Shown piece after piece: positions 12,646 to 47,500 of a stretch of 64,000 bases of DNA. Origin of the DNA: Syntrophobacterales bacterium (GTDB lineage Bacteria > Desulfobacterota > Desulfobaccia > Desulfobaccales > 0-14-0-80-60-11); the NCBI GenBank assembly GCA_020060385.1, contig JAGVAH010000048.1, positions 645 through 64,644 of the forward strand. Reading direction: 5' to 3'. Each line of letters starts with the position of its first letter. Within the stretch, counting starts at the first letter, position 1. The translations under genes were made by a program, and so were the position numbers. Under the pieces are notes generated by a model. It made no database searches, was not told where the DNA came from, and saw only the letters and a program-made list of their open reading frames with translations.

Positions 12646-12702
12646 GGGGGAAGCCATCCTGGGGGCCTCAAACCGGTCCCTTCCGGTTCCACTTGAGACA
12701 TC

Positions 12703-25360: not shown

Positions 25361-25615
25361 AACCTTCCCTATCAATAATTTTTCTAGAAAATATTTGGTT
25401 GATAAGTAAATCCAGAAATCATCGGTCTCCGGTGAAATCAAAACACCCTTTCATTTACGCGACATTGTTTGGAAATAATTAACTCCTTGAAATACTTAAT
25501 ATTTACTAAGTGCCTCCAAAAAACGTTTTAATTCCGCTCATTTCCAACCCCGGTAAATCCCTCGGGCTCCCCCCCCACCTTCATAATTATTATTAGTTTC
25601 AACTAATTATCCGTT

Positions 25616-25631
25616 TGGCCCCGTCCTTGCT
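25616..25631 (+). promoter_or_regulatory. Sigma-54 (-24/-12) promoter TGGCCCCGTCCTTGCT
   Basis: GG at 25617-25618 and GC at 25629-25630, matching the spacing of the consensus TGGCACG-N4-TTGCW. It lies 47 nt upstream of the nuoE-like ATG, directly downstream of a sigma-54 activator gene. Confidence 0.7.
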
Positions 25632-25677
25632 CTGTTTGCCGTTGAGAGCAAATCCCCGAACAGAGGAGGAAAGGTCT

Positions 25678-26145: not shown

Positions 26146-26150
26146 GGGTC

Positions 26151-28061: not shown

Positions 28062-28072
28062 AAGGAGGGAAC

Positions 28073-28648: not shown

Positions 28649-28691
28649 GCCATTGCGGCCCTATAGACGCAGGCAGAAGAAGGAGATCTCC

Positions 28692-31115
28692 ATGAAAACC
28701 GAAAGCAAAATAGGCGTTTTCCTGTGCGAGTGCGGGGGCAAGATCAGCGGCCGCATAGATTTGCAGGAGGTACGCGAGTTGACCCGATATGAACCCTGGG
28801 CCCATTTCGAAACCTCCCCCTACCCTTGTCTGGCCCCCGGTCTGGAAACCATCCGCAAGCAAGTCCAGGATAAGGGGTTGGACCGCATCATGGTGGCCGG
28901 CTGCTCCTCCCGGATCATGAAAAAGAGGTTCACCAATGGTCTGGCCGCGGTGGGCATCCAGAGGCATCAAATAGAGATGGTCAACCTCAAGGACCACGTG
29001 GCCCTGGTGCACGAAGCCGGCCCCCAGGAACTGGCCCGCAAGGCTGCGGCCCTGATCAGCGGCGGCCTGGCCAGCCTCAGGCTCCTGGAGCCTTATGAAC
29101 CCGTGTCCCTGCCCTTCGAGGGACCCGCGCTCATCTTGGGAGGCGGCGTCTCCGGCTTCGCTGCGGCCCGGGAACTGGCCCGCCATGGTTTGGAGAGCGT
29201 GGTCTTTTCTAAGGCCTTAGAGGCTGAGCGGGTTCTGGAGGAGCTGCATTGGACCTTCCCCGGCTGCCGTATCTTCTGCGGCGACTTGGGGGAATTTCTC
29301 CGGGAGGTGTTCACCAGCCCTAAAATCAAAATAATGCCTGATCAGCCCATAGATTATATCGTCGGCGGCGTGGGCGACTATCATGTGGGGCTGCGGCAGC
29401 CTGACAACACGATCACCGAAGTTAACGGCGCGGCCATCATTGTCGCCCTGGACCGGGAATTCGCCCCCCCGGAAATCGCCCATATCGGCGGCGGTGAGCG
29501 GGTGCTCGATCTGCTGGACCTGGAAGAGCAACTGGTGGAAGGGGAATTTAAACCCGGCAAGGTCCTCTTCTGGGTGAACAGCCCCCAGCACGGCAAAGAC
29601 GCACAAGAGTTGGCGACCATGGCCGCGTGGCGGGATAGCCTGTTGTTGGCCCGGGAGCATCCCCAGGTCCAACCCACGGTGCTCTATCCGGCCAACATCG
29701 CCCTGCCCCTGGCCGGAGCCGACCTGGTGGAGGCCCGGGCCCACGGCATCGGGCTGATGTCTTACGCGCCGGAGGTGCATCCGGTGGTCCAGTCCGGCTA
29801 CTTGAGCTTTGTGAGTCCTGCGGACAACCTGGAACATGAAGTGGAGTGGGACACCCTGGTAGTTCCGGGGGTGCCAGGAGACCCGGGGGCCAAGGCCCAG
29901 GAACTGCTGCGGTGGCTGCCCATTTATCCGGAAAACGGGGGCCGCCTCCAAAAGAGCCACATCAAATTCTGGCCGGATCAGGTCCCGGACGAGTCCCTCT
30001 TTTTTACCGGCTCCGCCGGGGGTCTCTGCGACCTGAATGATGTGTTGCAACAGGGGAAGAATGCGGCCCGGGGAGTGTTGCGGCTCCGGGAAAAAGCCCT
30101 GGAAGGCAAATTGGTGAGTCCGGTGGTGGTGCATGTGGATAAGGACCTCTGCGAGGGTTGCGGCCTGTGCACCGAGATCTGTCCCTGCGGCGGCGTGGAA
30201 CACGTCAAACCAGGGAGCGGCCCGGTCCCCCGGGAGGTGGACAACCACCTCTGCAGCGGCGGCGGCACCTGTGCGGCCACCTGCCCTTATGAAGCCGTGA
30301 AGATCCTCAATAACACCGCGCAGCAGTTGGAAGCCCGCCTCAAGGCCATGATGGCCCGGATGCAGGAAAACGATATCCTGGGCTTTGTTTGCGGCTGGGG
30401 CGGCTTGGCTTCCGCGGAACAAGCCGCGATCAAGGGGGTCGCCTACCCCAGCGGCATTTATCTGGTGCCGGTGAACTGCCTGGGCTCCATTGACCCCTTC
30501 ATTCTCTCCATGGCCTTTCTGAACGGGGTCAAGGGCATCATGCTGGCCGGCTGCACGCCCAAACATTCCTGCCATTACCACTTCGGAGTAGACCACTGCT
30601 GGTATCGGGTCAACGCCATGAAAAAACTCCTTTCCCTGGCCGGTCTGGAGCGGCGGCGGATCTCCATCGGCTACGTGGAGGTCAATGAGCCGAATTCCTT
30701 TGCCCGCATGGTGGAGTCCCACATGGAAAGCCTGGGAAAGCTGCCGCCCCTGCCCCAGGATGAGAAGAGCAAGGCCAAACTCTGGGCCATTCACGCCACC
30801 CTGCACCGGCCCCGGGTGCGTTGGGTCCTGGGGACCAGCCTGAGGCGGCCGGCGGAGAAAGAATTCCCCGGCTCCCAGTTCAACGCCGTGGAAGCGGACG
30901 AGACCATGTTGGATGTGCTCAAGGAAGAATTTCTGGCCTCCAGAATTCTCAAGGCCTTGAGCGACCAGCCCCTCAATCCGCCGGGAATCGCCCGGCTTAT
31001 GGACGAGCCGGTGAAAAACATTACCCCTCTGTTGCCGGATATGGCCAACGAGGGCCGCATCGCCCTCCAGGGCTGGGAGGGAGGCTACCCGGTTTATGCC
31101 GTGGGCAAGGCGTGA
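28692..31115 (+). CDS. HdrA-like FAD/FeS oxidoreductase fused to an MvhD (FlpD) domain
   Basis: SD AAGGAG. Dinucleotide fold ALILGGGVSGFAAARELARHG, inserted ferredoxin CEGCGLCTEICPCG, and the C-terminal MvhD-type block ILGFVCGWGGLASAE...VNCLGSIDP...MLAGCTPKHSCHY. Confidence 0.7.
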   Translation: MKTESKIGVFLCECGGKISGRIDLQEVRELTRYEPWAHFETSPYPCLAPGLETIRKQVQDKGLDRIMVAGCSSRIMKKRFTNGLAAVGIQRHQIEMVNLKDHVALVHEAGPQELARKAAALISGGLASLRLLEPYEPVSLPFEGPALILGGGVSGFAAARELARHGLESVVFSKALEAERVLEELHWTFPGCRIFCGDLGEFLREVFTSPKIKIMPDQPIDYIVGGVGDYHVGLRQPDNTITEVNGAAIIVALDREFAPPEIAHIGGGERVLDLLDLEEQLVEGEFKPGKVLFWVNSPQHGKDAQELATMAAWRDSLLLAREHPQVQPTVLYPANIALPLAGADLVEARAHGIGLMSYAPEVHPVVQSGYLSFVSPADNLEHEVEWDTLVVPGVPGDPGAKAQELLRWLPIYPENGGRLQKSHIKFWPDQVPDESLFFTGSAGGLCDLNDVLQQGKNAARGVLRLREKALEGKLVSPVVVHVDKDLCEGCGLCTEICPCGGVEHVKPGSGPVPREVDNHLCSGGGTCAATCPYEAVKILNNTAQQLEARLKAMMARMQENDILGFVCGWGGLASAEQAAIKGVAYPSGIYLVPVNCLGSIDPFILSMAFLNGVKGIMLAGCTPKHSCHYHFGVDHCWYRVNAMKKLLSLAGLERRRISIGYVEVNEPNSFARMVESHMESLGKLPPLPQDEKSKAKLWAIHATLHRPRVRWVLGTSLRRPAEKEFPGSQFNAVEADETMLDVLKEEFLASRILKALSDQPLNPPGIARLMDEPVKNITPLLPDMANEGRIALQGWEGGYPVYAVGKA

Positions 31116-31241
31116 GTAGCCAGAAAGATAAAATAATGTCAAGTCCCGGACCCAAGTTCCTGCTCCTGGAGTGTTAAGGCCGCTTTAAGAAGCCAGTTCA
31201 CCTAGGGGCCGGAACTTGGATTGACCGGGCAGGAGGCCCCC

Positions 31242-32348
31242 ATGAAAACTTTTGCCGATTTGATCCAGGAGGTCCAAGAACCAGGCCTCTGTCACCAATG
31301 CGGTGGTTGTGTAGCGTTTTGTAACGCCATCAATTATGGGGCCTTGGAGTTGGGACCTGACGGCCGGCCGCGCTTCAGCAATAAGGAAAAATGCATCGAG
31401 TGCGGCATCTGCTATTCCATCTGTCCGGTGATCCATGAGCTGGACGAAGACACCAAAGAACTGGTATCCTGGAGCGCGCCTTTGGGCCGTGTCATGGGCA
31501 GCGCCGTGGCCCGGGCCGCTGCCCCCCAGGTGCGGGCCCAGGCCACCGACGGCGGGGTGATCACCGCGCTTTTACTCCACCTCTTTGACCGGGGCCGTAT
31601 CGATGCGGCCATCGTCAGCAAGACGGTGGGCCCCTTCCAGCGTCGGCCCTGGCTGGCCCTCACCCGGGAAGACATCGCCGCCGCGGCCGGGTTCCACTTC
31701 GACACGCTCCCCAGCATTAAGCATTTCTCCGATTTTTACACCACCTATTCCCCCTCCATCGTGGGACTGGGGGCCGCGGCCCGGAAATCCTTGAAAAGGG
31801 TGGCCTTTGTGGGTACGCCTTGCCAGATCAAAGCCTTGCGGCGCATGGAGGTTCTGGGGGTGGTGCCCGCCGATGCCATCAAATTCCATTTCGGCCTGTT
31901 CTGCGCCGGCAATTTCCAGTTCGGCCCGGAACAGCGGCAGCGTCTGGAACAGATGGGCAATTTTACCTGGGGCGAGGTCCAGAAAGTCAACCTCAAAGAA
32001 GACCTGTTAATCCACTTGAATAACGGGGAAATCCGCGCCCTGCCCCTAAAGCAGCTTGATTTTATGAAACGGCACGCCTGCCGCTTCTGCGACGATTATG
32101 CCGCGGAGTTTGCCGACCTTTCCTTCGGAGGCATTGGCGCGCCTCAGGGCTGGACCACCGTCATCATTCGCTCCTCCATTGGGTCGACGGTCTGGGCCGA
32201 GGCCCGGGGAGTGGATATTGAAATGTACAATTACCGGGAAAATCCCGCCTTGACCTCCCAGGTCATGGCCAAGGTGGAGGAATGGTCCGATAAGAAAAAG
32301 AAATCGGCCCTGGAATATTTCCAGGACCTGGAGAAGAAAGCCATCTAA
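31242..32348 (+). CDS. FrhB/FdhB-family (coenzyme F420 hydrogenase/dehydrogenase beta-like) flavo-FeS protein
   Basis: SD AGGAGG. N-terminal 2x[4Fe-4S] (CHQCGGCVAFC, CIECGICYSICP), then FrhB-like blocks DGGVITALL, FVGTPCQIKALRR and RFCDDYAAEFADLSFGG. Confidence 0.7.
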   Translation: MKTFADLIQEVQEPGLCHQCGGCVAFCNAINYGALELGPDGRPRFSNKEKCIECGICYSICPVIHELDEDTKELVSWSAPLGRVMGSAVARAAAPQVRAQATDGGVITALLLHLFDRGRIDAAIVSKTVGPFQRRPWLALTREDIAAAAGFHFDTLPSIKHFSDFYTTYSPSIVGLGAAARKSLKRVAFVGTPCQIKALRRMEVLGVVPADAIKFHFGLFCAGNFQFGPEQRQRLEQMGNFTWGEVQKVNLKEDLLIHLNNGEIRALPLKQLDFMKRHACRFCDDYAAEFADLSFGGIGAPQGWTTVIIRSSIGSTVWAEARGVDIEMYNYRENPALTSQVMAKVEEWSDKKKKSALEYFQDLEKKAI

Positions 32349-33107: not shown

Positions 33108-33833
33108 CTAATTCTTCTTCCTCAGGACGTAGATGACCCACGGCGCTATCGAGGTTTCGTTTAGCCAATCGTAGGGTTCATCTTCACGTCCGAGGGGTGT
33201 GTGATGCAGGACCAGATCGATTTCGCAGGTGGCAAATAGATGCAGGTAGTCTGCGTGCAACCAGAGAAGGTCCACCACGGGGCGCTGGTCCGCGACATCT
33301 TTCATCACGATCTTGACTGGGTCCCCACTTTGAGCATTATGGTTTTCCGGAAAATCCTTCGTCGTGAAAGATGCCCACTCGTGGGTGTAGATCTCGGGGG
33401 TCGAGCCCAGGATAATAATGTGCCCTGCACTATTCAGCAGGTCACGCAGACCACCTAAAAGCTCTCTGCGCTTGCCGACGCCGGGAATATTGTCAAACGT
33501 GAAGGCAGCCAGAACCAGGTCGAAGTGGCCGGGCTGGAACGAACTGAAATCCCCATCATCTATCAACCGATAGATGCCGCTTGGGTCGGCGTTCTGGGCC
33601 AGATCTATCATGCTGCTCGAAATGTCGATGCCAATTGCCTCAAAGCCAAGCCTTTTCAGAAACCTCGTAGAGCGTCCGGCCCCGCAACCGAAATCGAGAG
33701 CTACGCGTCCCTTGATGTGTTTGGCGATGATCCCGGGCAAGTCGCGGTACGCCAAATAGTAGGTGCCGGGGAACTCAAGAGTCGAATAAGCTTTCGCCCT
33801 CTGAGTGTCATCATAGACATTGAAAAATGACAT
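33108..33833 (-). CDS. Class I SAM-dependent methyltransferase
   Basis: ATG at 33833. The longer ORF-track start would overlap the kamA-like gene. Motif I VALDFGCGAGRSTRFL. Confidence 0.7.
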   Translation of the reverse strand: MSFFNVYDDTQRAKAYSTLEFPGTYYLAYRDLPGIIAKHIKGRVALDFGCGAGRSTRFLKRLGFEAIGIDISSSMIDLAQNADPSGIYRLIDDGDFSSFQPGHFDLVLAAFTFDNIPGVGKRRELLGGLRDLLNSAGHIIILGSTPEIYTHEWASFTTKDFPENHNAQSGDPVKIVMKDVADQRPVVDLLWLHADYLHLFATCEIDLVLHHTPLGREDEPYDWLNETSIAPWVIYVLRKKN

Positions 33834-33885: not shown

Positions 33886-35316
33886 TCAGTGCAGCAAACA
33901 CTCGGTAACAGAGTAGCTGGGAAGGATCCGTTCACGATCCCCCTCGTCTGCAAACGGGAACCTTTCCCTGGCAAAGGCAGGCCGTAGCTGGTCAAACCAA
34001 GTGACATGGGGGTCCAATGCTGCGAAGAACACGGTCTTCACCAAGGCAGGATCCCGAGCCTGGGTGAAGTCGCAGATCAGGACCGGTTCATCCGCATGGA
34101 TCGCCGGGACACCCCCGTGGGCCCGGGAAAACGTTTCAATCATTCTGTCGTCCATTATGTCCCGTAGCGTGATCACGCCCATGATCCTCACTTTTCCGGG
34201 AAAAGCCGACATCGTCGGCCCTTGCACAGGCCGGGAAAGACCGGAGACGCTCGCATAAGCCTGCCTATATATCTCGTAGGCCCTTACGAGGGGGACCTCG
34301 AAGTAGTTTCTCGCGCCTGTGTCCCGTTCCACAAACATGTAGTAGGGGATAAGCCCCAGCCGGACTCCGGTTCGCCAGATAGAGGCCCAGACCTCGGGAT
34401 CGTCATTAACATGCCTGATGATCGGTGCCTGCATGCGGATTTGGGCGCCCGTATTGCGTATTCGCTGGATTGCCGCCCTCGCTATTTCAGGTTCGAGTTC
34501 CACTGGATGGGAGAAGTGGCCCATGATCGCCAAATGCCGATTGGCGGCGATTACCTCCTCAAAAAGTCTCAAGCAGTCGTCTGCATCTGGCTCCGAGACA
34601 AAGCGATAAGGCCAGGACGCGATGGCTTTTGTGCCGATGCGAATGTTCTGCACATGGTCTAGTTCGGGGATCAACAGGGGCTCTAGATATTTGCGCAGCA
34701 GTGTTGTCCGCATGATCATCGGGTCACCCCCGGTGATCAGCACATCCGTGACGTCTGGATGGGCCTTCAGATAGGCAACCAAGTCCACCGTGTCCTTGCT
34801 GGCAAACTTCACTCCTTCCATGTTAATAAACTGGGCCCAGCGGAAACAGTAGGTGCAGTAAGCATGGCACGACTGTCCATGGAAAGGGAAAAAGAGCACC
34901 GTTTCCCGATACTTGTGCTGCAGTCCCCAAAGAGGTCGCCCTTCGAATATAGGCACATTGTGAGTCAACTGCCCGGCCGGGTACGGATTCAAATCGAGCC
35001 GGATCCGCTGGATCACCCGGGCCAGGGAGTCTTGCGCATGGCCCTTGCGCAAGAGTGTCTCCACATCATGGTACTGCTCGGGGTCAAGCATTTCCCGTTG
35101 GGGGAACACAAGCTGGAAAACCGGATCGTTCGGCACCTTGGACCAGTCGATGAGGTTCTCCATGAGATAGCGGTTCGTTCGGAAGGGAAGAACTTGAGAT
35201 ACGACTTCCACAGCCGCCCGCAGATCGGGCTTCAGCCTCCTCCATTCGGGCGTTGCTGCCACGTTATGGATGCCAACCGCCTGATAGCGGATAGGTGTTG
35301 TCGCAGCTGGTTTCAA
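33886..35316 (-). CDS. KamA-family radical SAM aminomutase (lysine/glutamate 2,3-aminomutase-like)
   Basis: CHAYCTYCFRW (CxxxCxxC), GLQHKYRETVLF, ITGGDPM, and a C-terminal Lys-containing block (FPGKV). TTG start preceded by AAGGGAG. Confidence 0.8.
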   Translation of the reverse strand: MKPAATTPIRYQAVGIHNVAATPEWRRLKPDLRAAVEVVSQVLPFRTNRYLMENLIDWSKVPNDPVFQLVFPQREMLDPEQYHDVETLLRKGHAQDSLARVIQRIRLDLNPYPAGQLTHNVPIFEGRPLWGLQHKYRETVLFFPFHGQSCHAYCTYCFRWAQFINMEGVKFASKDTVDLVAYLKAHPDVTDVLITGGDPMIMRTTLLRKYLEPLLIPELDHVQNIRIGTKAIASWPYRFVSEPDADDCLRLFEEVIAANRHLAIMGHFSHPVELEPEIARAAIQRIRNTGAQIRMQAPIIRHVNDDPEVWASIWRTGVRLGLIPYYMFVERDTGARNYFEVPLVRAYEIYRQAYASVSGLSRPVQGPTMSAFPGKVRIMGVITLRDIMDDRMIETFSRAHGGVPAIHADEPVLICDFTQARDPALVKTVFFAALDPHVTWFDQLRPAFARERFPFADEGDRERILPSYSVTECLLH

Positions 35317-35367: not shown

Positions 35368-36141
35368 TCAGGACAGCCTCTGGCCGATAAACGCCGCGCC
35401 GATTGCGCCCCTGACTTGCGGATTGTCAGCCACAAAGACCTTCATTCCCAGCGCTTCCTCAAGCGCCCTGACCACGCCGCGGTTCAAGGCAACTCCTCCA
35501 CTCATTCCCAGAGGGCCGCTGATGCCCACAGTCCTGAGCAGCGAGATAGCCCGTGTGGCTATCGAGTTGTGGACCGCCTTGACGATATCCGGAATCGGCG
35601 TCCCCACGGCCACCAGTGACACCACCTCCGTCTCGGCAAACACCGTGCAGGTGCTGCTGATACGCACGGTGTTCTGGGAAAGCGCGGACACCTCCCCGAG
35701 GTCCGTAAGCTCCAGCCCCATAGCCTTCGCCGTAACCTCCAGAAATCTGCCGCAACCCGCGGCGCACTTGTCATTCATGGCGAAGGATTCCACATTCCCA
35801 GCCTCATCGATCCGAATAGCCTTGCTGTCCTGGCCGCCAATTTCCAGGATGGTTCTTATCTCCGGATTCAGGAGGTGCATCCCTATTGCATGGCAGGTAA
35901 TCTCGGAGATGTGTTTGTCGGCAAAGGGAACGTTCTCCCTCCCGTAGCCGGTGGTCACCACAAAGCCTATGTCATTGCGCGTCAGCCCTGCCTTGCCGAG
36001 CACATTCTCATAGGTCAATTCCGTGGCGGTCCGATTGCTGCCGCCGGTCAAAACGAGATCGAAGCCGATAACCTCCCAAGTCTCGTTCATGAGAGCAGCT
36101 TTTGTTGACAAAGAACCGACGTCAATACCTGCAGTGATCAC
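35368..36141 (-). CDS. BcrAD/BadFG-family ATPase: activator (archerase) of 2-hydroxyacyl-CoA dehydratase (HgdC/HadI/FldI type)
   Basis: MITAGIDVGSLSTKAALM (ASKHA phosphate-1). Bridging-cluster cysteines in CAAGCGRFLE and ISSTCTVFAE. GTG start after AAGGAGAG. Confidence 0.85.
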   Translation of the reverse strand: MITAGIDVGSLSTKAALMNETWEVIGFDLVLTGGSNRTATELTYENVLGKAGLTRNDIGFVVTTGYGRENVPFADKHISEITCHAIGMHLLNPEIRTILEIGGQDSKAIRIDEAGNVESFAMNDKCAAGCGRFLEVTAKAMGLELTDLGEVSALSQNTVRISSTCTVFAETEVVSLVAVGTPIPDIVKAVHNSIATRAISLLRTVGISGPLGMSGGVALNRGVVRALEEALGMKVFVADNPQVRGAIGAAFIGQRLS

Positions 36142-36164
36142 CTCACGACTCTCCTTCCTCAGGC

Positions 36165-37382
36165 TTATTGCATGAGTTCCAAGAACGCGTCGACGCGGTT
36201 CTTGATATGGTTGAACGTATAGTTGTTCCTATCAACCAGGTCGATATTGATGGTCAGATACTTCAGCTTCCTGCTCGCCGCCAGATCCCTGAGCATAGGG
36301 TTGATTCCCATCATGTTCCTGCATCCCCACACGTTCGAGATCACAAACCCCTCAATGCCAAACGTTTCGCACATCCGTAACGTGTCCACCCGCATCCTCT
36401 CGGCATTCCAATGGTAGAGTATCGCTCTATGGGCCATGCTCCGCAGCGGCTCGTCCTCATCGAGAACCAATGCGTTCGCCTCCCATAGTGGTGCCCAATA
36501 GACGATGTCGACCACGCGGTTCATATATTGCAGCAGTTCGTGGGACTCCTCCGGTGCTTGACCTATCCACATTACCCGCTTGCCTTTTTTCTCCTCGCCT
36601 TTTGCCAGCTCCAGGGCCTCCTCGAACAACACTTTGCATATCTGCGCATTCTGCTTGGCGCCGAAGTAATTCATCCCAAATATCTCATGCAGTTCTCGAG
36701 AGACTCCAGCAAGCTTGTGGGTTTCCAGAAGTCGAATAGTCTCCGAGAAGTATTCCCGCGCCTGGTTGGAGTGTTCTACCGCGGCGCGCAATGAATCCGG
36801 GGCGAGTTCCACCCCGAACTCACCTTCCAGCTGCGATATCAAATATTGCATCTGCTTGACGAGATACCTCAGGGAGTCTTCATCGATCGTATCCGGCGTA
36901 TGCAATGGCAAAATCGGCACGCTATAGCGCTTCCCTGATATATAAATCAGCTTCGACAGCCCCTCGCAGGGTTGGTTGTTGGTCAAGACGACGTTGGGGC
37001 GCGGATAGCAATTTGCCAGCATCATGCCGTAAGGTCCCCGCAGGAAAGAACATATGTCCCTCGATAGATTCTGCTCTTCGGTCAGTTGCAGGATCCGGTT
37101 CACATCCGCAGATTGGGCCAGCATGTTCGACATCGACTCAATGTTCCAAGGGATGGCCTCAAAGGCAAAGGCAATCTCTGTGGGAAATTGCTCGGAGACA
37201 TACGCCACCCGCGACCGCTCCTTATAAGCCTCCACCAGTCGATGACAGTTGACGATGGAACGCATCCGCGAGGCCCTGAGTTGGGGGCCGTCTATCTCGG
37301 CATCGGGGCGAAGATCGCCGATCAGCCTAAGAAGGTTCTGATACTGAACGCTGCGCCTCTGTCCGTTTCTCTCTTGTTCCAA
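36165..37382 (-). CDS. 2-hydroxyacyl-CoA dehydratase D-component subunit (HgdA/HadB/FldB-like)
   Basis: The HGD-D family architecture is recognisable (AYVSEQFPTEIAFAFEAIPWNI, DICSFLRG, VWGCRNMMG). It lies adjacent to the second subunit and the activator. TTG start after GAGGTGGA. Confidence 0.65.
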   Translation of the reverse strand: MEQERNGQRRSVQYQNLLRLIGDLRPDAEIDGPQLRASRMRSIVNCHRLVEAYKERSRVAYVSEQFPTEIAFAFEAIPWNIESMSNMLAQSADVNRILQLTEEQNLSRDICSFLRGPYGMMLANCYPRPNVVLTNNQPCEGLSKLIYISGKRYSVPILPLHTPDTIDEDSLRYLVKQMQYLISQLEGEFGVELAPDSLRAAVEHSNQAREYFSETIRLLETHKLAGVSRELHEIFGMNYFGAKQNAQICKVLFEEALELAKGEEKKGKRVMWIGQAPEESHELLQYMNRVVDIVYWAPLWEANALVLDEDEPLRSMAHRAILYHWNAERMRVDTLRMCETFGIEGFVISNVWGCRNMMGINPMLRDLAASRKLKYLTINIDLVDRNNYTFNHIKNRVDAFLELMQ

Positions 37383-37391
37383 GTGTCCACC

Positions 37392-38525
37392 TCAAAACAT
37401 CCGGGATTCCAGAAATGTCTGTATCCGGGTCCTGATGCTGGCAAGGTTCGTGACGTTGCGCTCCGATTCGATAGACAAGACCGGGATTTTCGCCTCCCGC
37501 AGTCGCTCCAATACATAAGGGTAGTCGTGCAGGTTTGTGTCGCAGAATTTAATGGAGTAATAGATGACCGAATCGACCTGGTACTCTTGCACCAGATCTA
37601 GGATGTGCTGAATTCTGACATCAATCTCCAGCCTGCGGGCGCTGGTATACTTCTCCAGATAGTAATCGGCGATGGCGGTGACGGGCTCCGCGTCCGGATC
37701 GATCTGTCCTTCGAAATACTTGACTCCGTTGCTGATGTCCTCGCAGACCAGAGCGGCGCCCCCATTCTCAATGGCGTCGATGATGCCCTGTTGATCGAAG
37801 TAACTGCCGCAGATCATCACCCGGTGACCCTTCCGGGGGGCGGGCGGCGGCTCCGCCGCCGCCAGCGCCTCGAGCAGCGCCGACATTTTCCTGTTGAAAT
37901 GCTCCTTCAATCCCGTGGTGGCAGCCTTGACCACCTGTATCGACTCCCCCCCGGTCAGAACCTGTCGTCCTCCCTTCTTGTACCGGTAGAGCCGTTGCAT
38001 GAGCGTCCTCGACCGGTTGCAGATGTCGATGGCCTCTCGCAGCGCCTCCTCGGAGATCTTGCGCCCATACCGGTGTTCCATTTCGGTGATCAACTTTCGC
38101 AGCCGCTGGGCGAAATACTCCTTGGAGATGGCGCTCACATAGCAAGGAAGATCCAGAAAATAGGTCGTCATGGACGGGATATCCCGGGTCCATGCCTCCC
38201 AGAGCTTCTTTCTCATGTCGCAGGCGTCGGCGAAGATGACCCCATCGGCGAAATCGTAGACGCCGGCCAGCCCTTCGCTAAAGCAACTCAGCAGGTAGGA
38301 ACAATAGTTATTGCCGAGACGGGCGCAGGCATCGGTGGCGCTCGACTCCAATTCGCCCGTGATTCGCAAAGGGATCAGGCCCGCGGCCAGGAAGATCTCC
38401 TCTGGTGTTTGGATCGACACCCAACCGATCTTCGGGCTGTCCGCCGCTTTCCAAAGATCGAAGCGGTTCCGGTACAGATCCACAATACCTCGGATCGCCT
38501 GCCGTATCGTGTCTTCCCCCCTCAT
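37392..38525 (-). CDS. 2-hydroxyacyl-CoA dehydratase D-component subunit (HgdB/HadC/FldC-like)
   Basis: True start ATG at 38525 (MRGEDTIRQ...), overlapping the NRPS stop as ATGA. Motifs KIGWVSIQTPEEIFLAAGLIPLRI, NYCSYLLSCF and YYSIKFCDTNLHDYP. Confidence 0.65.
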   Translation of the reverse strand: MRGEDTIRQAIRGIVDLYRNRFDLWKAADSPKIGWVSIQTPEEIFLAAGLIPLRITGELESSATDACARLGNNYCSYLLSCFSEGLAGVYDFADGVIFADACDMRKKLWEAWTRDIPSMTTYFLDLPCYVSAISKEYFAQRLRKLITEMEHRYGRKISEEALREAIDICNRSRTLMQRLYRYKKGGRQVLTGGESIQVVKAATTGLKEHFNRKMSALLEALAAAEPPPAPRKGHRVMICGSYFDQQGIIDAIENGGAALVCEDISNGVKYFEGQIDPDAEPVTAIADYYLEKYTSARRLEIDVRIQHILDLVQEYQVDSVIYYSIKFCDTNLHDYPYVLERLREAKIPVLSIESERNVTNLASIRTRIQTFLESRMF

Positions 38526-41500
38526 GCAACCTCCGGGGCCATTTCCACCGAGGTGAGAGGCCGGAATTGGCCCCACAGAGTCTCGGACAGGTAATGGGAA
38601 ATGCTCGATATCGTCGGCGCCATGGACACCAAGCAAACGCTCGGCGCGATGCCAAAGGCGCTGTTGATTTGGACCATCAGATTCGCCGCCCCCAAGGAGG
38701 TCAGGCCGAGATCGAAGAGGTTGGCCTCCATCCCTACGGGCCCTACGCCCAACAGCTCCTCGACCATCGATGCCACCTTCTTGGCGATGGCCGCTGGCGG
38801 CACCGCGATTTCCTCGCGGTCCGCCGGCCTCTCGGGCATCGGCAGCCACTCGTATTGCACTGGGCCCCCCGCTGCCCGCGGTATCATGCCCACCTGTATG
38901 TAGTTGTCCGGGATCATATAGCCCGGCAACCATCGCCCCAGATGCAGCTTCACCTCTTCCACGAATAACTGCGGCACCGCAGGTACGCCGCCCCCCAGAA
39001 CCAGGAAGGCGACGAGGCGCTCCCGGTGCTGGACCTCATCGTCGAAGACGACTACCGCGTCCTCGATGCCGGGGTGGGATCTGAGACGCCCCTCGATCTC
39101 GGCAAGGCTGACTCGGTGGCCATCGATGCTCACCTCGTCGGGGCGACCCGTCAACTCGATACGGCCGTCAGGGAGCCACCGGGCCCAAACCCCTGTCCGG
39201 TACATCCTGCTGCCGGCAGCATACGGATTCATGGTGAATCCAGGCGCGGTTTCGTCCCCGCGGTCCCAATACCCCCTGGCCAGGCCGGCGCCGCCCACGC
39301 ACAGCTCCCCCGTGACGCCGATGGGCAGTAGGCCGCCGTCGTGGCCGAGGATGTAGACTTCCGAGTTCGTTATCGGTTTGCCGATAATGCCCCCCGCACC
39401 ATCCCCATTCACGGGGCAGCAGGTCGTTACTTCCGTATTTTCCGCGTGACCAAAGCATTTAACGAATTCGTATGAGCCCTTGCGCGCAGGGCTAACGTTG
39501 CGTCCGGAGGTAATCAACACCCGGAGCGCGGTATTCTCTGCTGGGGCCAAGTGATGGCAAAGGGGAGCAGGCAACCAGGCAATGGTCACGCGGCTCTGCG
39601 CCAAATACTGGTCAAGCGACTTGGCGTCGCGCCCGGCGCCTTCGGTAAGGATGCCAATGGACGCGCCCGCGGCCAGGAACGGAAATACCTCAAAGATGGT
39701 GGCGTTCGCGGTAAGATCTCCGTACTTGGCGCTGCGATCGTCGGGACTCACCGCGAAGCGTTCGGTATGCCACCGGCAGCGGTCGAACAAGGACCTGTGC
39801 TCGATCATCACCCCTTTCCAGGCGCCTGTGGGCTTGGCAACATAACTCACGTAAGCTAGCCCTCCAGCGTCTCGGAGAGGCTCGAGGTTCGAGCCATTGG
39901 GGTCGTAGTTCTTCTCATCTCCCAGGTCCACGAATGGTGTGGTGAAAGGAGTTATTTCGGCGGCGGCATGGCCCAGGACGAGCCTGGCGCCGCTTGCCGC
40001 CAAAAGCCGCTCGATACGCGGCCAGGGATAGCCCTGGCTCAACGGCAGGTATGCGGCCCCCGTTTTTAAAACCGCGAGGAGCCCCATGATCATCTCGAAG
40101 GAGGGCCGCACCATGACGCCAACGATGTCCCCTGCTCCGATCCCCTGCCTGCGCAGATACCGCGCCAACTGGTTGGCGCGCCGGTTCAGCTCACCATACG
40201 TCATGCTCTTATCGTCTAAGACCAGGGCCACCCGGTCGGGAGACTGCTCCGCTTGCCCCTCGAAGGCCGAAACCACATTTTCGCCACCGGCGCGCTCCAC
40301 CACCCCGCCGTTGAACCCGCAGAGAATCCTCTCCTTTTCGGGCTTGGTCAGGACTTCAATCTGACCCAACTCCCTGCCCGGCTCTGTTATCACTTGTTTG
40401 AGAACCTGAAGGTAATTTGCAGCCAGGCGTTTGGCGGTGCTCCGCCGGAAGAGGTCGGTGTTGTATTCCATTTCGAACTCAAGCTTTCCGTCCGTCTCCA
40501 CCGCCCCCAAGGCCAAGTCGAACTTCGCTACCGGGTAGCCTACGTCCATCTCCCGGACGGTCAACCCGGGCATCTCCAGGGCGCTGAAGGATTGATCCTG
40601 CACGACAAACACCGTGTTGAAGAGAGGCTGGCCACCGCTTCTCAGCATGTGGCCCAGCATCATCCCCCACAGCTGGTACTCCTGGCATTCCAAGGCCCCG
40701 CGGACGGCCGTCCTCACCTGCGCCAGGTACTGGTCGAAACGGAGCCGGGACTGCGGCCGACTCCTGACCAGGTGCGTGCTCACGAACATACCCACCACCT
40801 TCTGGACCTCAGCGATGTACCTGCCGGCGGTGGGCACGGCGACGATTATGTCCTCCTGGCGGCTATATTTCGATAACAGCACCCCGTACGCCGCCAGGAG
40901 GGCCATGAACAGCGTTACCTCGTGCTCGGCACAGAAAGTCTTCAGTGCACTTTGCACCCATGGCTCCGTCTCGAAGGTAATCCTGGTGCCGGCAGACGAG
41001 AAGTTCTGGGGACGCGGAAAGTCCGTATCCAGTCGCGGCAAAGGAGGCGGGTCCTCGAGGACGCTCAGCCAGTATTTCTCCTTCTCGCGAAACGGTTCGC
41101 TCTGCAGATGCTCACCAATCCACTCCGCAAAATCCTTAAAGGTCACCCCGGGCTCCGGCAGCTCTTCGCCCGCATAGAGCGCGGCCATCTCCTCAAACAA
41201 GATCCCCATGGAGGTGCCGTCGCTTACCAGGTGGTGCATGTCCATCAACAGCACCTGGCGGCCGGGTCCCAGGGGCACCAGGGCCGCCCGCAGCAGCGGC
41301 GCCACTCCCAGATCAAAGGGGCGAATGAAATCGCGAGCCACTTCCTCGATCTCGTCTTCGCCGCATCCCTCCAGGACACTGATGGCGAAATCGACCCTGG
41401 GGCTCACCCATTGCCTGGGCTGACCGCCCACCGTCCTGAACGACGTCCTCAACGTCTCATGGCGATGGATCAGTTGCCGAAAGGCGTTTTCCAACCTGGG

Positions 41501-44500
41501 GACGTCCAGATCGCCGTGGAGTTCGAAGGCCGTGGGCAGGTTATATTCCACACCCTTTCTGGAGGAGCAAAGGGCATACAATAAGGCCTGGGTCGGGGTG
41601 ACCGAGTAGTGCACCCGGCTTTCTGCGGCCTGGAGCACCATAGATTCGTGTTTGGTGACGTTTTCAAAGCAGCGGGCCAGCAAGGCGAGGGATTGGTTAT
41701 CGAACACGGCCCCTAAAGGGACACTCGCGTCAAACTCCCTGTTCGCCTTGGCCAGCATTATCGTGGCCCGCAGGGAATCGCCTCCGATTTCAAAGAAGCG
41801 ATCGTGGATGCCGATTTTTTTCCGGTCCAACACACTGCGCCAGATCTCGGCCAGTCTTTTCTCCGTGTCACTTCGAGGCGCTACATAACCTTGCCCCACC
41901 CCCAGGCTTGCTTCCGGGTTCGGTAACCTTGTGGTGTCGATCTTGCCCCGGGGGTTCAGAGGAATTGCATCGACGGTGAGCAGGAAGGCCGGTACCATGT
42001 AATCGGGGAGATGCCTGGCGAGGTGGGCTCTGAGCTCGGCCAGCTGCGCCGCCTCCCGCCAGACAATATAGGCGCAGAGGAACTTATTGTTCTCTTTATC
42101 CTCCCGGGGAACCACCACCGCATCCTGCACCGCTTCATGAGCGAGGATCGCCCCTTCGATCTCCCGCAACTCCGTCCGGCATCCCCGGATCTTGACCTGA
42201 TTGTCCGTCCGCCCGATGAACTCGAGGCTGCCGTCCGGAAGCCACTTGGCCACGTCGCCGGTGCGGTACATTCTCTCGCCCGGCACAAAGGGATCGGCCG
42301 CGAACTTCTCCGCCGTCCGCAGGGCGTCATTAAGATAACCGCGGGCCAAGCCCACACCGGCAATGCATAGCTCGCCCGGGGCCCCAATGGGCACCACTTC
42401 ATTGGCTTTCCCCAGCAGGTACACCCGCGTATTGGCCACCGGCTTGCCGATGGGTATCCTCTCCTCCTCGATTCGCACCGTGCAGCTGGTGGCGACGACC
42501 GTATCCTCCGTGGGCCCATAGTTATTCACCACCTGGTAACTCTTTGGCCTGAGGCGACGCAGGCGGTCACCGCCGGTCAGCAGCGTGCGCAAAGACTTGT
42601 TGTCCAACTCCATAAACAATTCGCACACCTGCGTCGGCAGGAAACAGATGGTGATGCCCTTCTCTTCGAAATAGCGATTGAGCCGGGGCAGGTCCAGCCG
42701 CATCGCCTCTTTGATCACATGGAGAGCGGCTCCTGCCTGCAGATAAGGGAAAATTTCCCAAACAGAGGCGTCGAAACTAAAGAGGGCGTACTTCGTGGCC
42801 CGATCGGCGGCGGTTACCCCGAAGGTGTTGATATGCCAGGCGCACAGGTTGTTCACGGAGTGATGCTCGATCATGACCCCTTTCGGCGCTCCGGTCGTCC
42901 CCGAGGTGTAAATCACATACGCCAGATCCCGGCCATATACTGCGTGTGCGAGATTCGAGTCGTCACCCCCATAGAGTCCGGGGTCGCCCAGGTCCAGAAC
43001 GAGCCGTGATGCATCTCTCCACTTGGCGCCGCCAGCCTCGAGGACGATCTGCGCGCCACTATCCTTAAGCATGGTCCGCACTCTATCTTCGGGACAATCG
43101 GGATCGATGGGCAGGAAGGCACACCCCGCTTTCAGAATAGCCAGTATGCCGACGATCATCTCGAGCGACGGTCCGGCGATGATGCCCACGACTTCTTCCC
43201 GGGCAACTCCCTTGCTCACCAGGGCGCGCGCGACCTGATTGGCGCGTCCATTGATCTCCAGGTAGGAGAGGGACAAATTTCCGTAAACAACGGCAACGTT
43301 GTCAGGGTTCTTGTCGACTTGCTCTTCGAAGATCTCGTGAATGCTCCGCTGGGCCGGGTAGCCGCTGGCGGAGGGATTGAAGCCGATGAGAATCTCCCGC
43401 CGCTCCTCCTCGGTGAGCGGATCGAGGTCGGCTATTTTACGGTCGGGGTGATGGACGATCTGCTCCAGGATATTTCTGTAGTGCAGGCTGAGCCGCTCCA
43501 TGGTGTCCTTACGGAATAGCTTGGCGCAGTATTCCAGTTCGAAATCAAGTCTCTCTTCCCCCTCGGCGGCCAACAGGGTCAGGTCGAACTTCGAGATCTT
43601 CCACTCGAAGTTGAGCCGCTTGACGGTCAGCCCATCTATTTCGAACTTCTCGCTGCCCTCGTCCAGGGAGGCGAACACCGTGTCGAAGAGCGGATTCCTG
43701 CTGAGATTTCTGTCCAGCATCAGCTTATCCACGAGTTCCTCGAACTGGTATTCCTGATTGGCGTAGGCATCGAGCGCATTGCTCCTCACCAGGCGGAGGA
43801 ACTCCCGGAAGGTGAGCTCGCCCCTCGGCTGATTGCGCATCGCCAGGGTATTGACGAACATGCCCACGACTCTTTCCAGCGACGGCTCATTCCGTCCCAC
43901 CACTGGCGTGCCCACGATAATGTCTTCCTGGCCTGCGTATTTCGACAAGAGAACCGTGTAGGCAGCCAACAAAATCATATGCATGGTCGCCCCGCAGTCC
44001 CGGCAGATCGCTCGAAGACCCTCCACGGTCGGGGTGTCGGCCTGGAAGGTCACCAGGCCGCCCTCGAAGGACTGCACCGCCTGGCGCGGGTAGTCTGTGG
44101 CCAGGTTGAGAACCGGCAGTTCACCTGCGAATAACTCTGTCCAGTAGGCTCCCTGCGCCAGCACCGCTTCGCTTTGGGAGCGGGCCCGTTGCCAGGCCGC
44201 GTAGTCCTTGTATTGGATCGCCGGCGGTTCGAGGGTTTGCCTCCGGTAGAGCGAGCAGAGTTCATCGAGTATGATCTCCACGGAAATCCCGTCCGAGACG
44301 ATATGGTGCATATCGACGATGAGCGAGTGCACCGACTCTCCGGACTTGACGATCGCAGCCCTTATGAGCGGTGCTTTACTCAAGTCGAAGGGGCGCACGA
44401 ACCGCTCGATTTCCTGCTGAATCGCCGCCTCACCAGTCGAGGAAATGTACTCGAAGGCAAAGTCCGGACACTGATGCACCTTCTGGACGATCCTTTCGTC

Positions 44501-47500
44501 AACCAGGGCGAAGGACGTTCTGAGAGGCTCGTGTCTCGCTATAAGTGCGCCAAATGCTTGCTCCCACCGCTCAGCGTCAAAGGGCCCCGTGATCTCCATC
44601 GCCCAGGGGACGTTATACTGGACATCCGCGGGCGCCAGTTGATTCAGGATGTAGAGCCGTTCCTGAGCCGACGACACCGGGTAGTACTCCCGCTCGCCCA
44701 CCGGCTCTATCAGAACCGGCGAATCCTCCCCGGTGAGTTCGACCCGGGCCGCCAGTTTCCGAATAGTTGGCTGCGCGAATACGTCCCGCAAGGAGATGCT
44801 CGCCTTAAGCTCCCGGTTGGCCCTCCCGGTCATGAAAATCGCCTTCAGGGACTGCCCGCCGAGCTCGAAAAAGTTGTCGTCGATGCCCACTCTCCCGACT
44901 CCCAGAACCTGTTCCCAGATCCGGGCCATCACAGTCTCTGTCTTGGACCTGGGAGCCGTGTATGTATGAGAACTGACGATGAGCGCCAGCGGGTCCGGCA
45001 ACTCCTTCTTATCGAGCTTCCCCCCCCGGGCGATGGCAAAGCGCCGCAGCGGCACGAACCAGGCCGGGATCATGTATGGCGGGAGATACTCTGCCAGCCC
45101 AGCCCGCAACTCCGTGGCCGGGATTTCACCATCTGCGACGAAGTAGGCGCAGAGACAGGTATCCCCGGCGGCGTCCACCCTAGTGGTCACGAGGGCTTCT
45201 TTGATCTGCGGAAAGCGGAGCAAACTGGCTTCGATCTCCCCCAGTTCGATCCGGAAGCCCCGGATTTTTACCTGATCGTCGTTCCGTCCCAGATACTCGA
45301 TGTTTCCATCCGGCAGCGTTCGGGCCAGGTCGCCGGTTTTGTACATGCGCAGAGGCGTTGGCCCTATGCGGTTCATGACAAAGCGCTCATCCGTAAGGAG
45401 GGGATTGTTCAGATAGCCTCTTGCCAGGCAGACCCCGGCGACGCACAGCTCTCCCGTCACTCCCTCGGGCACCGGGTGGCCGTATTGGTCCAGCAAGTAG
45501 ATGCCGGTATTGTCAATGGCCTGGCCGATGGGGACGGACAGGGCTGTATCGGTCCGGGGCTCGTACTTATGAATCATGCAGCCAACAGTGGCTTCTGTAG
45601 GCCCGTATTCGTTGAATATCTCAATCCGGCCCCCGAAACTCGCGTGAATCTTGGCGGCCAGACTCGTTTTCAGGTCCTCCCCGCCCACAATGATCTTTCG
45701 AAGCCTGCTCCCGTTCCGGTCAAGTTCTCCATCCACTGCGCCCAAAAGACTCAGATGCGTCGGCGTGAGCTTGATCAACTCCACCTGGTTGTCCCTGATG
45801 ATGTCCTCGATCAGGGCCACGGCATCGTCGAGCCGATAGATGACGATGCGGTTGCCCGACACCAAGGGCACGAAGATCGACGTCACCGTGAGATCCACCG
45901 ACAAGGGTGAATGCAGCGCAAAGGAGATTTTCTCCTGGCCCACGTAAGTCTTCGTGGCCCAGGTAATATAATTGGCAAGAGCGCCGTGGGACACCATCAC
46001 TCCCTTCGGGGTGCCGGTGGAGCCGGAGGTATAGATGACGTAAGCCAAGTCCTGGGAGTCGATGGCTGGCAGCGCCGGCAACTCCTCCACTGCGGACCAC
46101 GCCTCTTTATCCAGCTGCATGATTGCCAGGCCAGGCCAGGCGAAGGGTCCCGGGTCGCCTGCTATTAATAACGCGGCCATGCGTGCATCCGCGGCGATCT
46201 TTCGAAACCTCTCCCCGGGAGTCGTCGGATCCAGGGGCAGGTACGCCGCGCCGAGCTTGAGCACCCCCAGAATGGCGATAATCATCTCGAATGACGGCGG
46301 GGCCACCAGACCCACAAGATCGCCCCGGTCTACCCCCTGCTCCCGGAGTCTTTGAACCAGGGCGTTCGATCGCCTGTCCAGCTCGCCGTAGCTCAGGGTC
46401 TCTCCCCTGGACGAGAGTGCCGGTGCGGCCGGGGCTTTCCGAGCCTGGGCCCGGAAGAGATCCGCGACGTTGTTGGGGCTCGCCGCGTTAGGGACTGGCG
46501 GAAGGACCAGACGCTGTCTCTCCCGGGCGGTCAAGATGTTGATATCAGATAGTTTGACGCGGGGATCGGCGGCAATTTCTTCGAGAATGTTCAGATAGTG
46601 ACCAGACAGTCTCTCAATCGTCTGCCGTCGGAAAAGGTCCGTGCGGTACTCGAATTCCAGCACGAATCGTTGATCTGGCCCCTCGATCTGCGTCAGACTG
46701 AGCTCGAACTTGGAAATCTGATAGTCGAGTTCGTAAAGGCTGAAGTCGACTCCTCCGTGGCGGCTAACTCCCCCATCGTAGGAGAGTGCGCCGAACATCG
46801 TGTCAAACAGGGGGTTCCGGCCCAGGTCCCGGGGCGGGTTGATCCTGTCCACCAAGTCTTCGAATTGGTAGTCCTGGTGTTCAAAGGCGTTCAGGCATTC
46901 CCCCCGCACCTGCTTGAGGTACTCCACAAACTCCAACTCGCCTTGGGGTTGACTCCTCAAGAGTAGCGTGTTGACGAATAAGCCGACCACTCCTTGAAAT
47001 TCCTCGGCTCGCCTCCCGGCCACCAAAGTGCCGACAATGATGTCCTCCTGACCGGCATACTTCGACAGTAAAATGTTGTAGGCCGAGAGCAAGAGCATAA
47101 ACATCGAGGTGCGGTTCTTCACTGCCAGGGATCGCAGGGCGGCAGTGAGCTCCTTGCCGGGACGCACAAACACGCGGTCTCCTGCCTGGGATTGATCCCG
47201 TTTCCGGAGATAGTCCGTCGGCAGGTTCAACACGTGCCTTCCGTCCAGCAGCTGCAGCCAGTAATCCTCTTGTTTCCTGGCCTCCGCCGTCTTGGCGAAG
47301 CGTCTCTGCCAGAGCGCAAAATCCTGGTACTGGCGCTGCAACTCTGGCAGACTCTGCCCCCCGTAGAGCCGGCCCAGCTCGTCAAGCAGGATGTCGACGG
47401 AGACAGCGTCGCAAATGATGTGGTGCAGGTCCAGCAAGAGAACGTGTTCAGCCTTCTCCAGCCGGACCAGGCAGGTACGCAATAGCGGCGCGCGGTGCAG

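Follow-up and report, generated by a model that had tools for sequence, protein, structure and literature searches.

What is an enzyme of anaerobic radical catabolism doing at the end of an operon for peptide synthesis? The question is raised by three genes at 35368-38525 on the minus strand of a 64,000-nucleotide stretch, hereafter the window, from contig JAGVAH010000048.1 of a Syntrophobacterales bacterium. These genes encode two subunits of the HGD-D type and an activator ATPase, and they follow a nonribosomal peptide synthetase (NRPS) gene directly. To our knowledge, radical enzymes of the family that comprises 2-hydroxyacyl-CoA dehydratase (HAD) and benzoyl-CoA reductase (BCR) are known only from anaerobic catabolism, that is, from amino-acid fermentation and aromatic degradation. 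We hold with moderate confidence that the trio is an ATP-primed, oxygen-sensitive [4Fe-4S] ketyl-radical enzyme of the electron-recycling HAD type, and that it belongs to a conserved NRPS pathway as a dedicated component. The NRPS gene cluster that contains it is conserved and apparently uncharacterized.

In the order of transcription, subunit 1 (37392-38525; 377 aa, ATG start; PF06050, E = 3e-77) is the beta-type HGD-D subunit, at the position of HadC and BzdN, and subunit 2 (36165-37382; 405 aa, TTG start; PF06050, E = 2e-46) is the alpha-type, presumably catalytic subunit at the position of HadB and BzdO. The activator (35368-36141; 257 aa, GTG start; PF01869 BcrAD_BadFG, E = 2e-62) is of the HgdC/HadI type and passes the TIGR00241 'acyl-CoA dehydratase activase' model with 250 bits against a cut-off of 125. 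Its public JGI gene call is 240 aa long and starts 17 codons further downstream; the GTG at 36141, with GAGGAAGGAG ahead of it, regains the N-terminal phosphate-binding motif ITAGIDVGS, which aligns from residue 1 of HadI and HgdC. A tblastn search of the whole window returned a single activase gene and two HGD-D genes. The ATG of subunit 1 (38525-38523) overlaps the TGA of the preceding NRPS gene (38524-38522) as ATGA, so that the junction reads ...GTT GCA TGA, and the overlapped gene (3083-3123 aa) carries a thiolation (T) domain at its very end.

A four-base overlap is common in operons and by itself is weak evidence of a shared function; its weight comes from its conservation. The junction was read by script in related loci, and the NRPS stop codon and the subunit-1 ATG were found to overlap as ATGA in 12 of them, in which subunit 1 is 60-76% identical to that of the window. 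A collection of 5.8 billion proteins holds about 79 relatives of subunit 1 at 42-76% identity, plus two at 30-36% (counted as clusters at 90% identity, with taxa drawn from look-ups and from a scan of GTDB species genomes). Homologous clusters occur in Blastochloris viridis, Bradyrhizobium sp. USDA 329, B. jicamae, Rhodopseudomonas palustris BisB18 and R. rhenobacensis, in Acidobacteriota metagenome-assembled genomes (MAGs) including Terracidiphilus, in one Rhodospirillales MAG, and in many species of Paenibacillus, among them P. elgii, P. tyrfis, P. ehimensis, P. tianmuensis, P. zanthoxyli, P. tepidiphilus, P. oleatilyticus and P. durus. Further relatives were found in Paramaledivibacter and in Spirochaetales and Planctomycetia MAGs; no NRPS gene was visible on the short Planctomycetia contig. 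All loci of at least 44% identity with enough flanking sequence have NRPS genes beside the trio, as does the sister clade, and this synteny extends over Alphaproteobacteria, Acidobacteriota, Bacillota, Spirochaetales and Desulfobacterales. The linkage of NRPS and trio is old and robust, since both the cluster synteny and the ATGA junction are kept across such distant taxa. With NRPS synteny so conserved, we reject both a chance neighborhood and an unrelated catabolic operon. A preliminary description of this DNA had read the ATGA overlap as a strong argument for a functional link and had proposed looking for the junction in relatives; the overlap is plainly there in the sequence, and it is the comparison between loci that bears the proposal out.

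The arrangement around this core varies. In the P. tyrfis type, NRPS genes of the composition C-A-T (condensation, adenylation, thiolation) and C-A-T-C-T are followed by a stand-alone thioesterase (TE), the two HGD-D genes, the activator, a MatE gene and a methyltransferase. In P. durus, two C-A-T genes are followed by the TE, the activator, MatE and the HGD-D pair. The sister clade, from Desulfobacterales, has a subunit 1 of about 47% identity and a subunit 2 of only 25-29%, and its order is a TE-less NRPS, an alpha-type HGD-D gene, the activase and a beta-type HGD-D gene. The MAG contig CBDUYN010000010.1 (9400-15779) holds an NRPS with three active A domains, three paralogous alpha-type subunits (11142-12359, 12407-13621 and 14565-15779), one beta subunit and one activator; there, an Ala/Pro/Arg-rich stretch of about 100 residues connects a T domain in frame to subunit 1, as the result of a fusion or else of a frameshift in the assembly. 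The flanks of the Blastochloris and Bradyrhizobium clusters (L002 16784-20972, L004 16504-19509 and L085 1-6158) carry transposases, ParDE toxin-antitoxin genes and relaxase/TraD genes, and because these genes flank the cluster, horizontal movement on a mobile element is suggested in those genera. A tblastn search of PLSDB gave no match to subunit 2.

To classify the enzyme, the three proteins were compared with characterized members of the family, namely HadB and HadC, the Bzd and Mbd reductases, DCCP, and the activators HadI and HgdC. Against this set, by score, the trio belongs to no characterized dehydratase family. Among PDB sequences, subunit 1 matched BzdN with 152 bits, HadC with 113, MbdN with 107 and DCCP with 94, and among NCBIfam models DCCP with 185, BzdN with 155 and HadC with 144, all far under the equivalog cut-offs. 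DCCP (NF040772) was the top NCBIfam match of both subunits, at 185 and 64 bits, below its cut-off of 350. Taken as a single sequence, subunit 2 diverges strongly. A profile built from 18 members of its family matched HadB with 92 bits, BzdO with 76, DCCP with 67 and MbdO with 66, and an AlphaFold model of subunit 2 (pLDDT 89) returned HadB (3o3o and 3o3m; TM 0.78-0.80) as the top Foldseek matches, ahead of MbdO and BzdO (0.76-0.78) and of DCCP. Because subunit 2 is closest to HadB in both the profile and the Foldseek search, it is presumed to be the catalytic, substrate-binding type, and subunit 1 its partner. The activator matched MbdQ (248 bits), HadI (235) and HgdC (206) in the PDB, and the cysteines of its NDKCAAGCGRF and SSTCTVFAE motifs align with the NDKC and SSTC cysteines of HgdC (1HUX) and HadI (4EHT), which we take to be Cys127 and Cys166 of HgdC, the ligands of the bridging cluster.

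The cluster ligands of the two HGD-D subunits were read against the class I BCR, in which BzdN binds an [8Fe-9S] double-cubane cluster through Cys36, Cys73, Cys100, Cys263, Cys293 and Cys327, and BzdO binds the catalytic cluster through Cys95, Cys128 and Cys380 (PMC11971306). In subunit 1, C75, C102 and C328 are invariant in 34 of 34 relatives. The distal double-cubane positions are occupied by S37, S265 and, at 295, by Ser or Cys, with Ser in 33 of the 34 sequences at the columns of BzdN Cys36 and Cys263. Across the six ligand columns of BzdN, the NRPS-linked clade thus reads S-C-C-S-(S/C)-C, HadC reads P-C-C-A-C-C and MbdN reads Q-C-C-F-Y-C. An alignment of 75 relatives confines the loss of the distal cysteines to the NRPS-linked clade, as almost all neighboring clades retain all six; HadC and MbdN represent parallel losses. 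By this pattern, the beta subunit has lost the second half of an ancestral double-cubane site. All 48 sequences compared for subunit 2 keep C111, C139 and C354, which align with the cysteines of HadB and with Cys95, Cys128 and Cys380 of BzdO. E82 aligns with the active-site Glu55 of HadB, a position that we take as the equivalent of BzdO Glu65. At the position of BzdO His131, subunit 2 has Leu, the family never has His, and HadB has Ala. In a neighbor-joining tree, which carries no bootstrap values, includes reference fragments taken from alignments and leaves the deep branching unresolved, the NRPS-linked clade stands apart from BzdN, HadC, MbdN and DCCP and is roughly equidistant from them. 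In the same tree, an uncharacterized clade of Dehalococcoidia/Chloroflexi MAGs (L040, L045, L046, L051 and L052) lies nearest BzdN; in its beta subunit, the fourth double-cubane cysteine is replaced by Asp.

With two paralogous HGD-D subunits, one ATPase gene and ligands for two single clusters, the architecture is of the dehydratase type, and the two subunits would pair as a heterodimer. The window and the related loci each have a single activase gene, and BCR has two different ATPases. The preliminary description had reached the same view, having read the trio as an activator with both bridging cysteines plus two D-component subunits on the plan of 2-hydroxyacyl-CoA dehydratases and not of BCR; Pfam, TIGR00241 and the alignments to HgdC and HadI agree with it, and the two divergent subunits exclude the DCCP homodimer as well. 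It had also named loss of the cluster-ligand cysteines as evidence against itself, and these are kept in all three proteins. Its expectation that models and phylogeny would place the subunits with the dehydratases held in part: the alpha subunit is nearest HadB, whereas no HadB or HadC equivalog cut-off was reached, the clade is separate in the neighbor-joining tree, and DCCP and BzdN give subunit 1 slightly higher scores.

The gene cluster to which the trio belongs runs from about 61702 down to 33108, with every gene on the minus strand. At its probable upstream end lies an Sfp-type phosphopantetheinyl transferase (60860-61702), for which an ACPS-family gene stands at the equivalent position in Blastochloris and Brevibacillus. 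After a small ORF comes a free-standing acyl carrier protein (ACP) of about 89 aa (about 59936-60205), with its serine motif LTSLD; it overlaps the start of the next gene, and a PP-binding gene holds its position in Blastochloris, P. durus, Brevibacillus and P. tepidiphilus. The next gene encodes a stand-alone ANL enzyme resembling amino-acid adenylation domains (58417-59952; PF00501 and PF13193). It is followed by a PP-loop ATPase (57386-58420), distantly WbuX/QueC-like (TIGR03573, 113 bits, under the cut-off), whose sole PDB match is 8wex, an N-acetyl sugar amidotransferase. A glutamine-hydrolyzing amidotransferase of the asparagine-synthase family, AsnB-type (55601-57382; TIGR01536, 503 bits against a cut-off of 267), and a short-chain acyl-CoA dehydrogenase (ACAD) of the Bcd type (54414-55604; Pfam ACAD N, M and C domains) precede the three NRPS genes. 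The trio comes after these, and behind it lie a KamA-like gene and a methyltransferase gene. The presence of an ACAD, an ANL ligase and a carrier protein in the operon, pointed out before, was borne out by Pfam and by the ORF sequences.

Pfam domains and specificity codes were used to describe the NRPS modules. Gene 1 (51020-54325) is C-A-T with the code DVTNFALIYK; the form DV(T/S)NFA(L/V/I)IYK is common to the window and the Paenibacillus clusters and matches no assignable amino-acid code. Gene 2 (47811-51023) is C-A-T with the Val/Ile-like code DAFFIGAVFK. Gene 3 (38522-47773, with the start of the JGI gene call) has the composition C-A-T-C-A-T-C-A-T, its A domains having the codes DLTKIGEVCK (Asn), DAWFLGNVVK (Leu) and NAFWISCEVP. 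The last of these, in the terminal module (38522-40100), is dead: its P-loop reads VAKPTGAWKG, its A5 motif is degenerate, the Asp of A7 is replaced by Val and the Lys of A10 by Pro, and Asp235 is replaced by Asn. Nine further related loci have a terminal A domain that is degenerate in the same way. This pseudo-A domain is conserved from Alphaproteobacteria to Acidobacteriota and has been deleted in clusters of the P. tyrfis type, leaving C-T; it is retained as a scaffold. Pfam detected no TE or other release domain in the cluster of the window.

Downstream of the trio, a KamA-family radical S-adenosylmethionine (SAM), pyridoxal phosphate (PLP)-dependent 2,3-aminomutase-like protein (33886-35316; TIGR00238, 130 bits, under the cut-off) is regarded as accessory. 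It matches LAM 2a5h, with the CxxxCxxC motif and the PLP lysine aligned, and its gene is syntenic in Blastochloris, Bradyrhizobium and Acidobacteriota and absent from the Paenibacillus clusters. A class I SAM methyltransferase (33108-33833; Pfam Methyltransf_11/12/25) is the probable downstream end and is kept in most related loci at 58-70% identity. The accessory genes behind the activator vary: at the place of the KamA-like gene of the window, Paenibacillus has MatE (L018 13210-14625), and Blastochloris has a class III aminotransferase in the place of the methyltransferase (L002 14943-16316).

The five genes from ACP to ACAD (ACP, ANL, PP-loop, AsnB, ACAD) form a conserved cassette, which in Bacillota has a radical SAM gene after the PP-loop gene, and the PP-loop family and the dehydratase clade co-occur on the same contigs. 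The ACAD has as its top NCBIfam match the acryloyl-CoA reductase AcrC (391 bits, under the cut-off) and as its top PDB match 5ol2_C (355 bits), which we take to be Bcd of the EtfAB-Bcd complex of C. difficile. Directly upstream of the carrier-protein gene, P. durus (L086 6155-8236) and P. tepidiphilus (L091 6168-8161) encode EtfB and an EtfA with a ferredoxin domain; no ETF genes were found among the annotated ORFs of the window. The had operon of C. difficile has the composition hadAIBC-acdB-etfBA. The P. durus and P. tepidiphilus clusters hold this gene set except for the CoA-transferase and the 2-hydroxyacid dehydrogenase, which supports the idea of a recruited fermentation module. The Dehalococcoidia outgroup loci, in which ANL, two HGD-D genes and ACAD are contiguous, point the same way.

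In the mechanism that we propose, the activator would spend ATP to inject one low-potential electron into the alpha/beta core. The cluster of the alpha subunit would bind the thioester carbonyl of a pantetheine-linked intermediate, carried by the free ACP, a T domain or CoA, and a ketyl radical would form. The radical would expel the alpha substituent and permit removal of a beta proton to give a 2-enoyl thioester, after which the electron would be recycled; the reverse hydration may also occur. The ANL enzyme would load an acyl or aminoacyl unit onto the free ACP. This unit would also be processed by AsnB, the PP-loop protein and the Bcd-type ACAD, the last together with EtfBA in clusters that encode it, and it would enter the peptide as a non-proteinogenic building block that is unsaturated, saturated or 2-hydroxylated. 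Whereas the architecture, the ligand pattern and the linkage to the pathway are read from the genes themselves, we infer the chemistry, the carrier and the leaving group: hydroxyl and amino or amide nitrogen are the candidates for the last, with a 2-hydroxyacyl or an aminoacyl/peptidyl thioester as the corresponding substrate. A route that leads from a 2-hydroxyacyl through an enoyl to a saturated acyl unit is plausible, though unproven.

Several observations weigh against assigning the trio to HAD chemistry in this pathway. The equivalog models are far from reached (HadB, 48 bits against 750; HadC, 144 against 700), subunit 1 fits the DCCP and BzdN models slightly better than that of HadC, and the neighbor-joining tree nests the clade in no characterized group. 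MbdN of the Thauera-type BCR also has three of the six cysteines, making loss of the double cubane compatible with a reductase. The cassette was found alone in the Desulfobacteraceae MAG contig JAAXOH010000005.1 (8153-14047), in a locus of polysaccharide/PEP-CTERM type with no NRPS or dehydratase gene within 10 kb, and the sister dehydratase clade has no ACAD, PP-loop or other cassette gene within 10 kb. The ANL enzyme looks like an amino-acid-activating enzyme rather than a hydroxy-acid ligase, because it keeps Asp235 and has the Gly-activating A domain of LgrA module 2 as its best PDB match (265 bits). Finally, the cluster of the window encodes no 2-hydroxyacid dehydrogenase, ketoreductase or transaminase, and no route to a 2-hydroxy acid.

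These findings also bear on the proposed origin of the module. The sister-clade contigs do not recur among the PP-loop matches listed. The ANL of the Desulfobacteraceae locus has the code DGSGSIM-FK, nearly identical to DGSASIM-FK of the window; the latter is conserved from Alphaproteobacteria to Bacillota and matches no assignable specificity. The ACP-ANL-PP-loop-AsnB-ACAD cassette is a portable module. We had considered ACAD as an obligate partner of the dehydratase, and this was rejected, as the cassette stands alone in the Desulfobacteraceae locus. The suggestion in the preliminary description that a Stickland-type reductive module had been recruited therefore meets mixed evidence: the Bcd-like ACAD and the EtfBA of two Paenibacillus clusters favor it, and the cassette without dehydratase and the sister clade without cassette speak against it. 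That the building block derives from an amino-acid-derived 2-hydroxy acid finds no support, given the amino-acid-like ANL and the lack of an encoded 2-hydroxy-acid source. The usual fermentation partners were rightly said to be absent, with no CoA-transferase or ETF among the annotated ORFs of the window and no 2-hydroxyacid dehydrogenase in the cluster, some ORFs at 25.6-32.3 and 62-64 kb lying outside the Pfam scan.

The position of the trio could mean that its substrate is held on the NRPS itself, an explanation that we regard as possible though unlikely. The terminal T domain, loaded in trans or by the preceding module since its own A domain is dead or missing, would present an aminoacyl or peptidyl thioester, on which a ketyl would form and from which the alpha nitrogen would be expelled to leave a deaminated enoyl unit. 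If that nitrogen were already acylated, the peptide would be released as a C-terminal amide, in an oxygen-free counterpart of amidation at a sacrificial residue. Much of the gene order fits: the ATGA coupling in the 12 loci is to a gene that ends in a T domain, the trio always comes after the last NRPS gene or its TE, the clusters of the window, Blastochloris and Bradyrhizobium have no TE or release domain, all close relatives have a degenerate terminal A domain, which P. tyrfis has lost altogether, and the sister clade too follows a TE-less NRPS, with no cassette seen. The code of module 4 is for Leu, which is isosteric with the HadBC substrate, and CBDUYN010000010.1 continues a T domain in frame into subunit 1. 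However, this last join may be a MAG frameshift, P. durus keeps the trio beside two C-A-T modules and a TE with MatE between the activator and HGD-D genes, operon order by itself defines no substrate, and no HAD-family enzyme is known to use a carrier-protein substrate or to expel nitrogen.

A different reaction is envisaged if the trio is an ATP-driven, low-potential two-electron reductase akin to BCR or DCCP, which would dearomatize or reduce an acyl thioester building block. The best single matches of subunit 1 (BzdN at 152 bits in the PDB and the DCCP model at 185) and of the activator (MbdQ) speak for it, as do the six-cysteine double-cubane site, typical of BzdN and DCCP, in nearly all neighboring clades and the ability of MbdN, a BCR subunit, to work with three of those cysteines. 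We had taken absence of a double cubane to discriminate against BCR and dropped the argument on account of MbdN, so that the main objections to a reductase are the single ATPase gene and the active-site residues, among which the His of BzdO His131 is missing. The clade-wide loss of the distal ligands, the proximity of the alpha subunit to HadB by profile and fold, the Asp235 kept in the ANL pocket and a cluster in which no ferredoxin gene or aromatic-acid pathway was seen add to this, and we judge a reductase to be quite improbable. Still harder to credit, in our estimate, is a pathway that runs toward hydration, with the ACAD (and ETF) desaturating an ACP-bound acyl group and the radical enzyme adding water to yield an (R)-2-hydroxyacyl unit; this would amount to an oxygen-independent alpha-hydroxylation that feeds a depsi-bond or a later transamination. 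HAD reactions are reversible, an ACAD is present, EtfBA is encoded in the P. durus and P. tepidiphilus clusters, the lack of an encoded 2-hydroxyacid source would be accommodated, and Blastochloris has an aminotransferase where others have the methyltransferase. The ANL, however, looks specific for amino acids, and direction is not readable from sequence.

With the electron-recycling HAD-type enzyme as our preferred reading, its likenesses to known systems can be stated. HadBC with HadI of Clostridioides difficile (PDB 3O3M/N/O and 4EHT) and HgdAB with HgdC likewise combine two paralogous HGD-D subunits with one homodimer-type ATPase, and the trio resembles HadBC in having three cysteines per subunit, in keeping the active-site Glu, and in lacking both a double cubane in the beta subunit and a counterpart of His131. 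It differs in that identity is only about 16-20%, in forming a separate clade, in its NRPS cluster, where ANL and carrier proteins replace CoA-transferase and LdhA, in hosts that include facultative or aerobic genera (Paenibacillus and Bradyrhizobium), and in a substrate that may be carrier-bound. Class I BCRs (BzdNOPQ, PDB 8S02; MbdONPQ, PDB 9G87 and 9GAI) share superfamily and fold with the trio, which, unlike them, has one ATPase gene, replacements of Cys36, Cys263 and partly Cys293 of BzdN, no His131 of BzdO and no context of aromatic degradation. DCCP and DCCP-R (PDB 6ENO and 7YYL) have a single type of ATPase partner as the trio does; DCCP is a homodimer with six cysteines per monomer, whereas the trio has two divergent subunits with three conserved ligands each.

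At the level of pathways, the had operon and the acrylate pathway, which we take to consist of Lcd plus AcrABC, are alike in joining a HAD-type trio to a Bcd/AcrC-like ACAD, with EtfBA in P. durus and P. tepidiphilus. In contrast to these modules, the NRPS-linked clusters have no CoA-transferase or 2-hydroxyacid dehydrogenase and would form the thioester through ANL and ACP; their ACAD goes with PP-loop and AsnB genes and is separable from the dehydratase, and their context is biosynthetic, not catabolic. Terminal NRPS modules can be loaded in trans, as in the C-T of syringomycin SyrE with SyrB1 and SyrC, and amides can be released through a sacrificial residue, as by MtaG of myxothiazol. The cluster is like these systems in its terminal module without a working A domain and in its stand-alone adenylating enzyme and carrier protein. 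It differs from them in that the window holds no SyrC-type transferase or monooxygenase domain and the adjoining tailoring enzyme is of the anaerobic radical type.

Outside the NRPS cluster, the window carries unrelated genes: a polysaccharide locus (1-23 kb), redox genes resembling FlpD, FrhB and NuoF, and a sigma-54 activator. The polysaccharide locus (1-23400, plus strand) encodes Wzy-like, ABC-2/Wzt, pyruvyl transferase, NeuB, CMP-sugar cytidylyltransferase, DegT and glycosyltransferase proteins, and within it lies a second AsnB-type amidotransferase (15464-17434), which is 32% identical to that of the NRPS cluster. The redox genes (25600-32348, plus strand) include NuoF-like Complex1_51K, 2Fe-2S and 4Fe-4S ferredoxin-like, FlpD-domain and FrhB-like genes; we draw no link from them to the cluster, and they point to a strictly anaerobic host.

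In the accessible full-text literature, we found no description of an enzyme of the HAD/BCR family in a nonribosomal peptide pathway, and a search there for 3-methylbenzoyl-CoA reductase returned nothing. One candidate precedent, PMC10616846, was set aside, as it concerns an analogy with the unrelated 3-hydroxyacyl-CoA dehydratase. The trio thus represents a known type of radical enzyme in a new and conserved biosynthetic setting, with a clade-specific cofactor signature in the loss of the distal double-cubane ligands, and the cluster points to an undescribed radical tailoring step in the synthesis of peptide natural products. An extremely oxygen-sensitive type of enzyme is here kept in the clusters of facultative and aerobic soil bacteria. 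Cultured and tractable hosts, including Paenibacillus durus, P. tyrfis/elgii, Rhodopseudomonas palustris BisB18, Blastochloris viridis and Bradyrhizobium, make the product and the reaction directly testable. Such work would reveal the use of anaerobic radical chemistry in building or releasing peptide natural products, and it could widen the substrates of the family from CoA esters to carrier-protein esters. Only tentatively do we entertain a HAD-family enzyme that acts on carrier-tethered aminoacyl or peptidyl thioesters and expels the alpha nitrogen, by deamination to an enoyl unit or by traceless release of a C-terminal amide; if true, the family would gain a new class of reaction, and NRPS tailoring or release a new mechanism that needs no oxygen.

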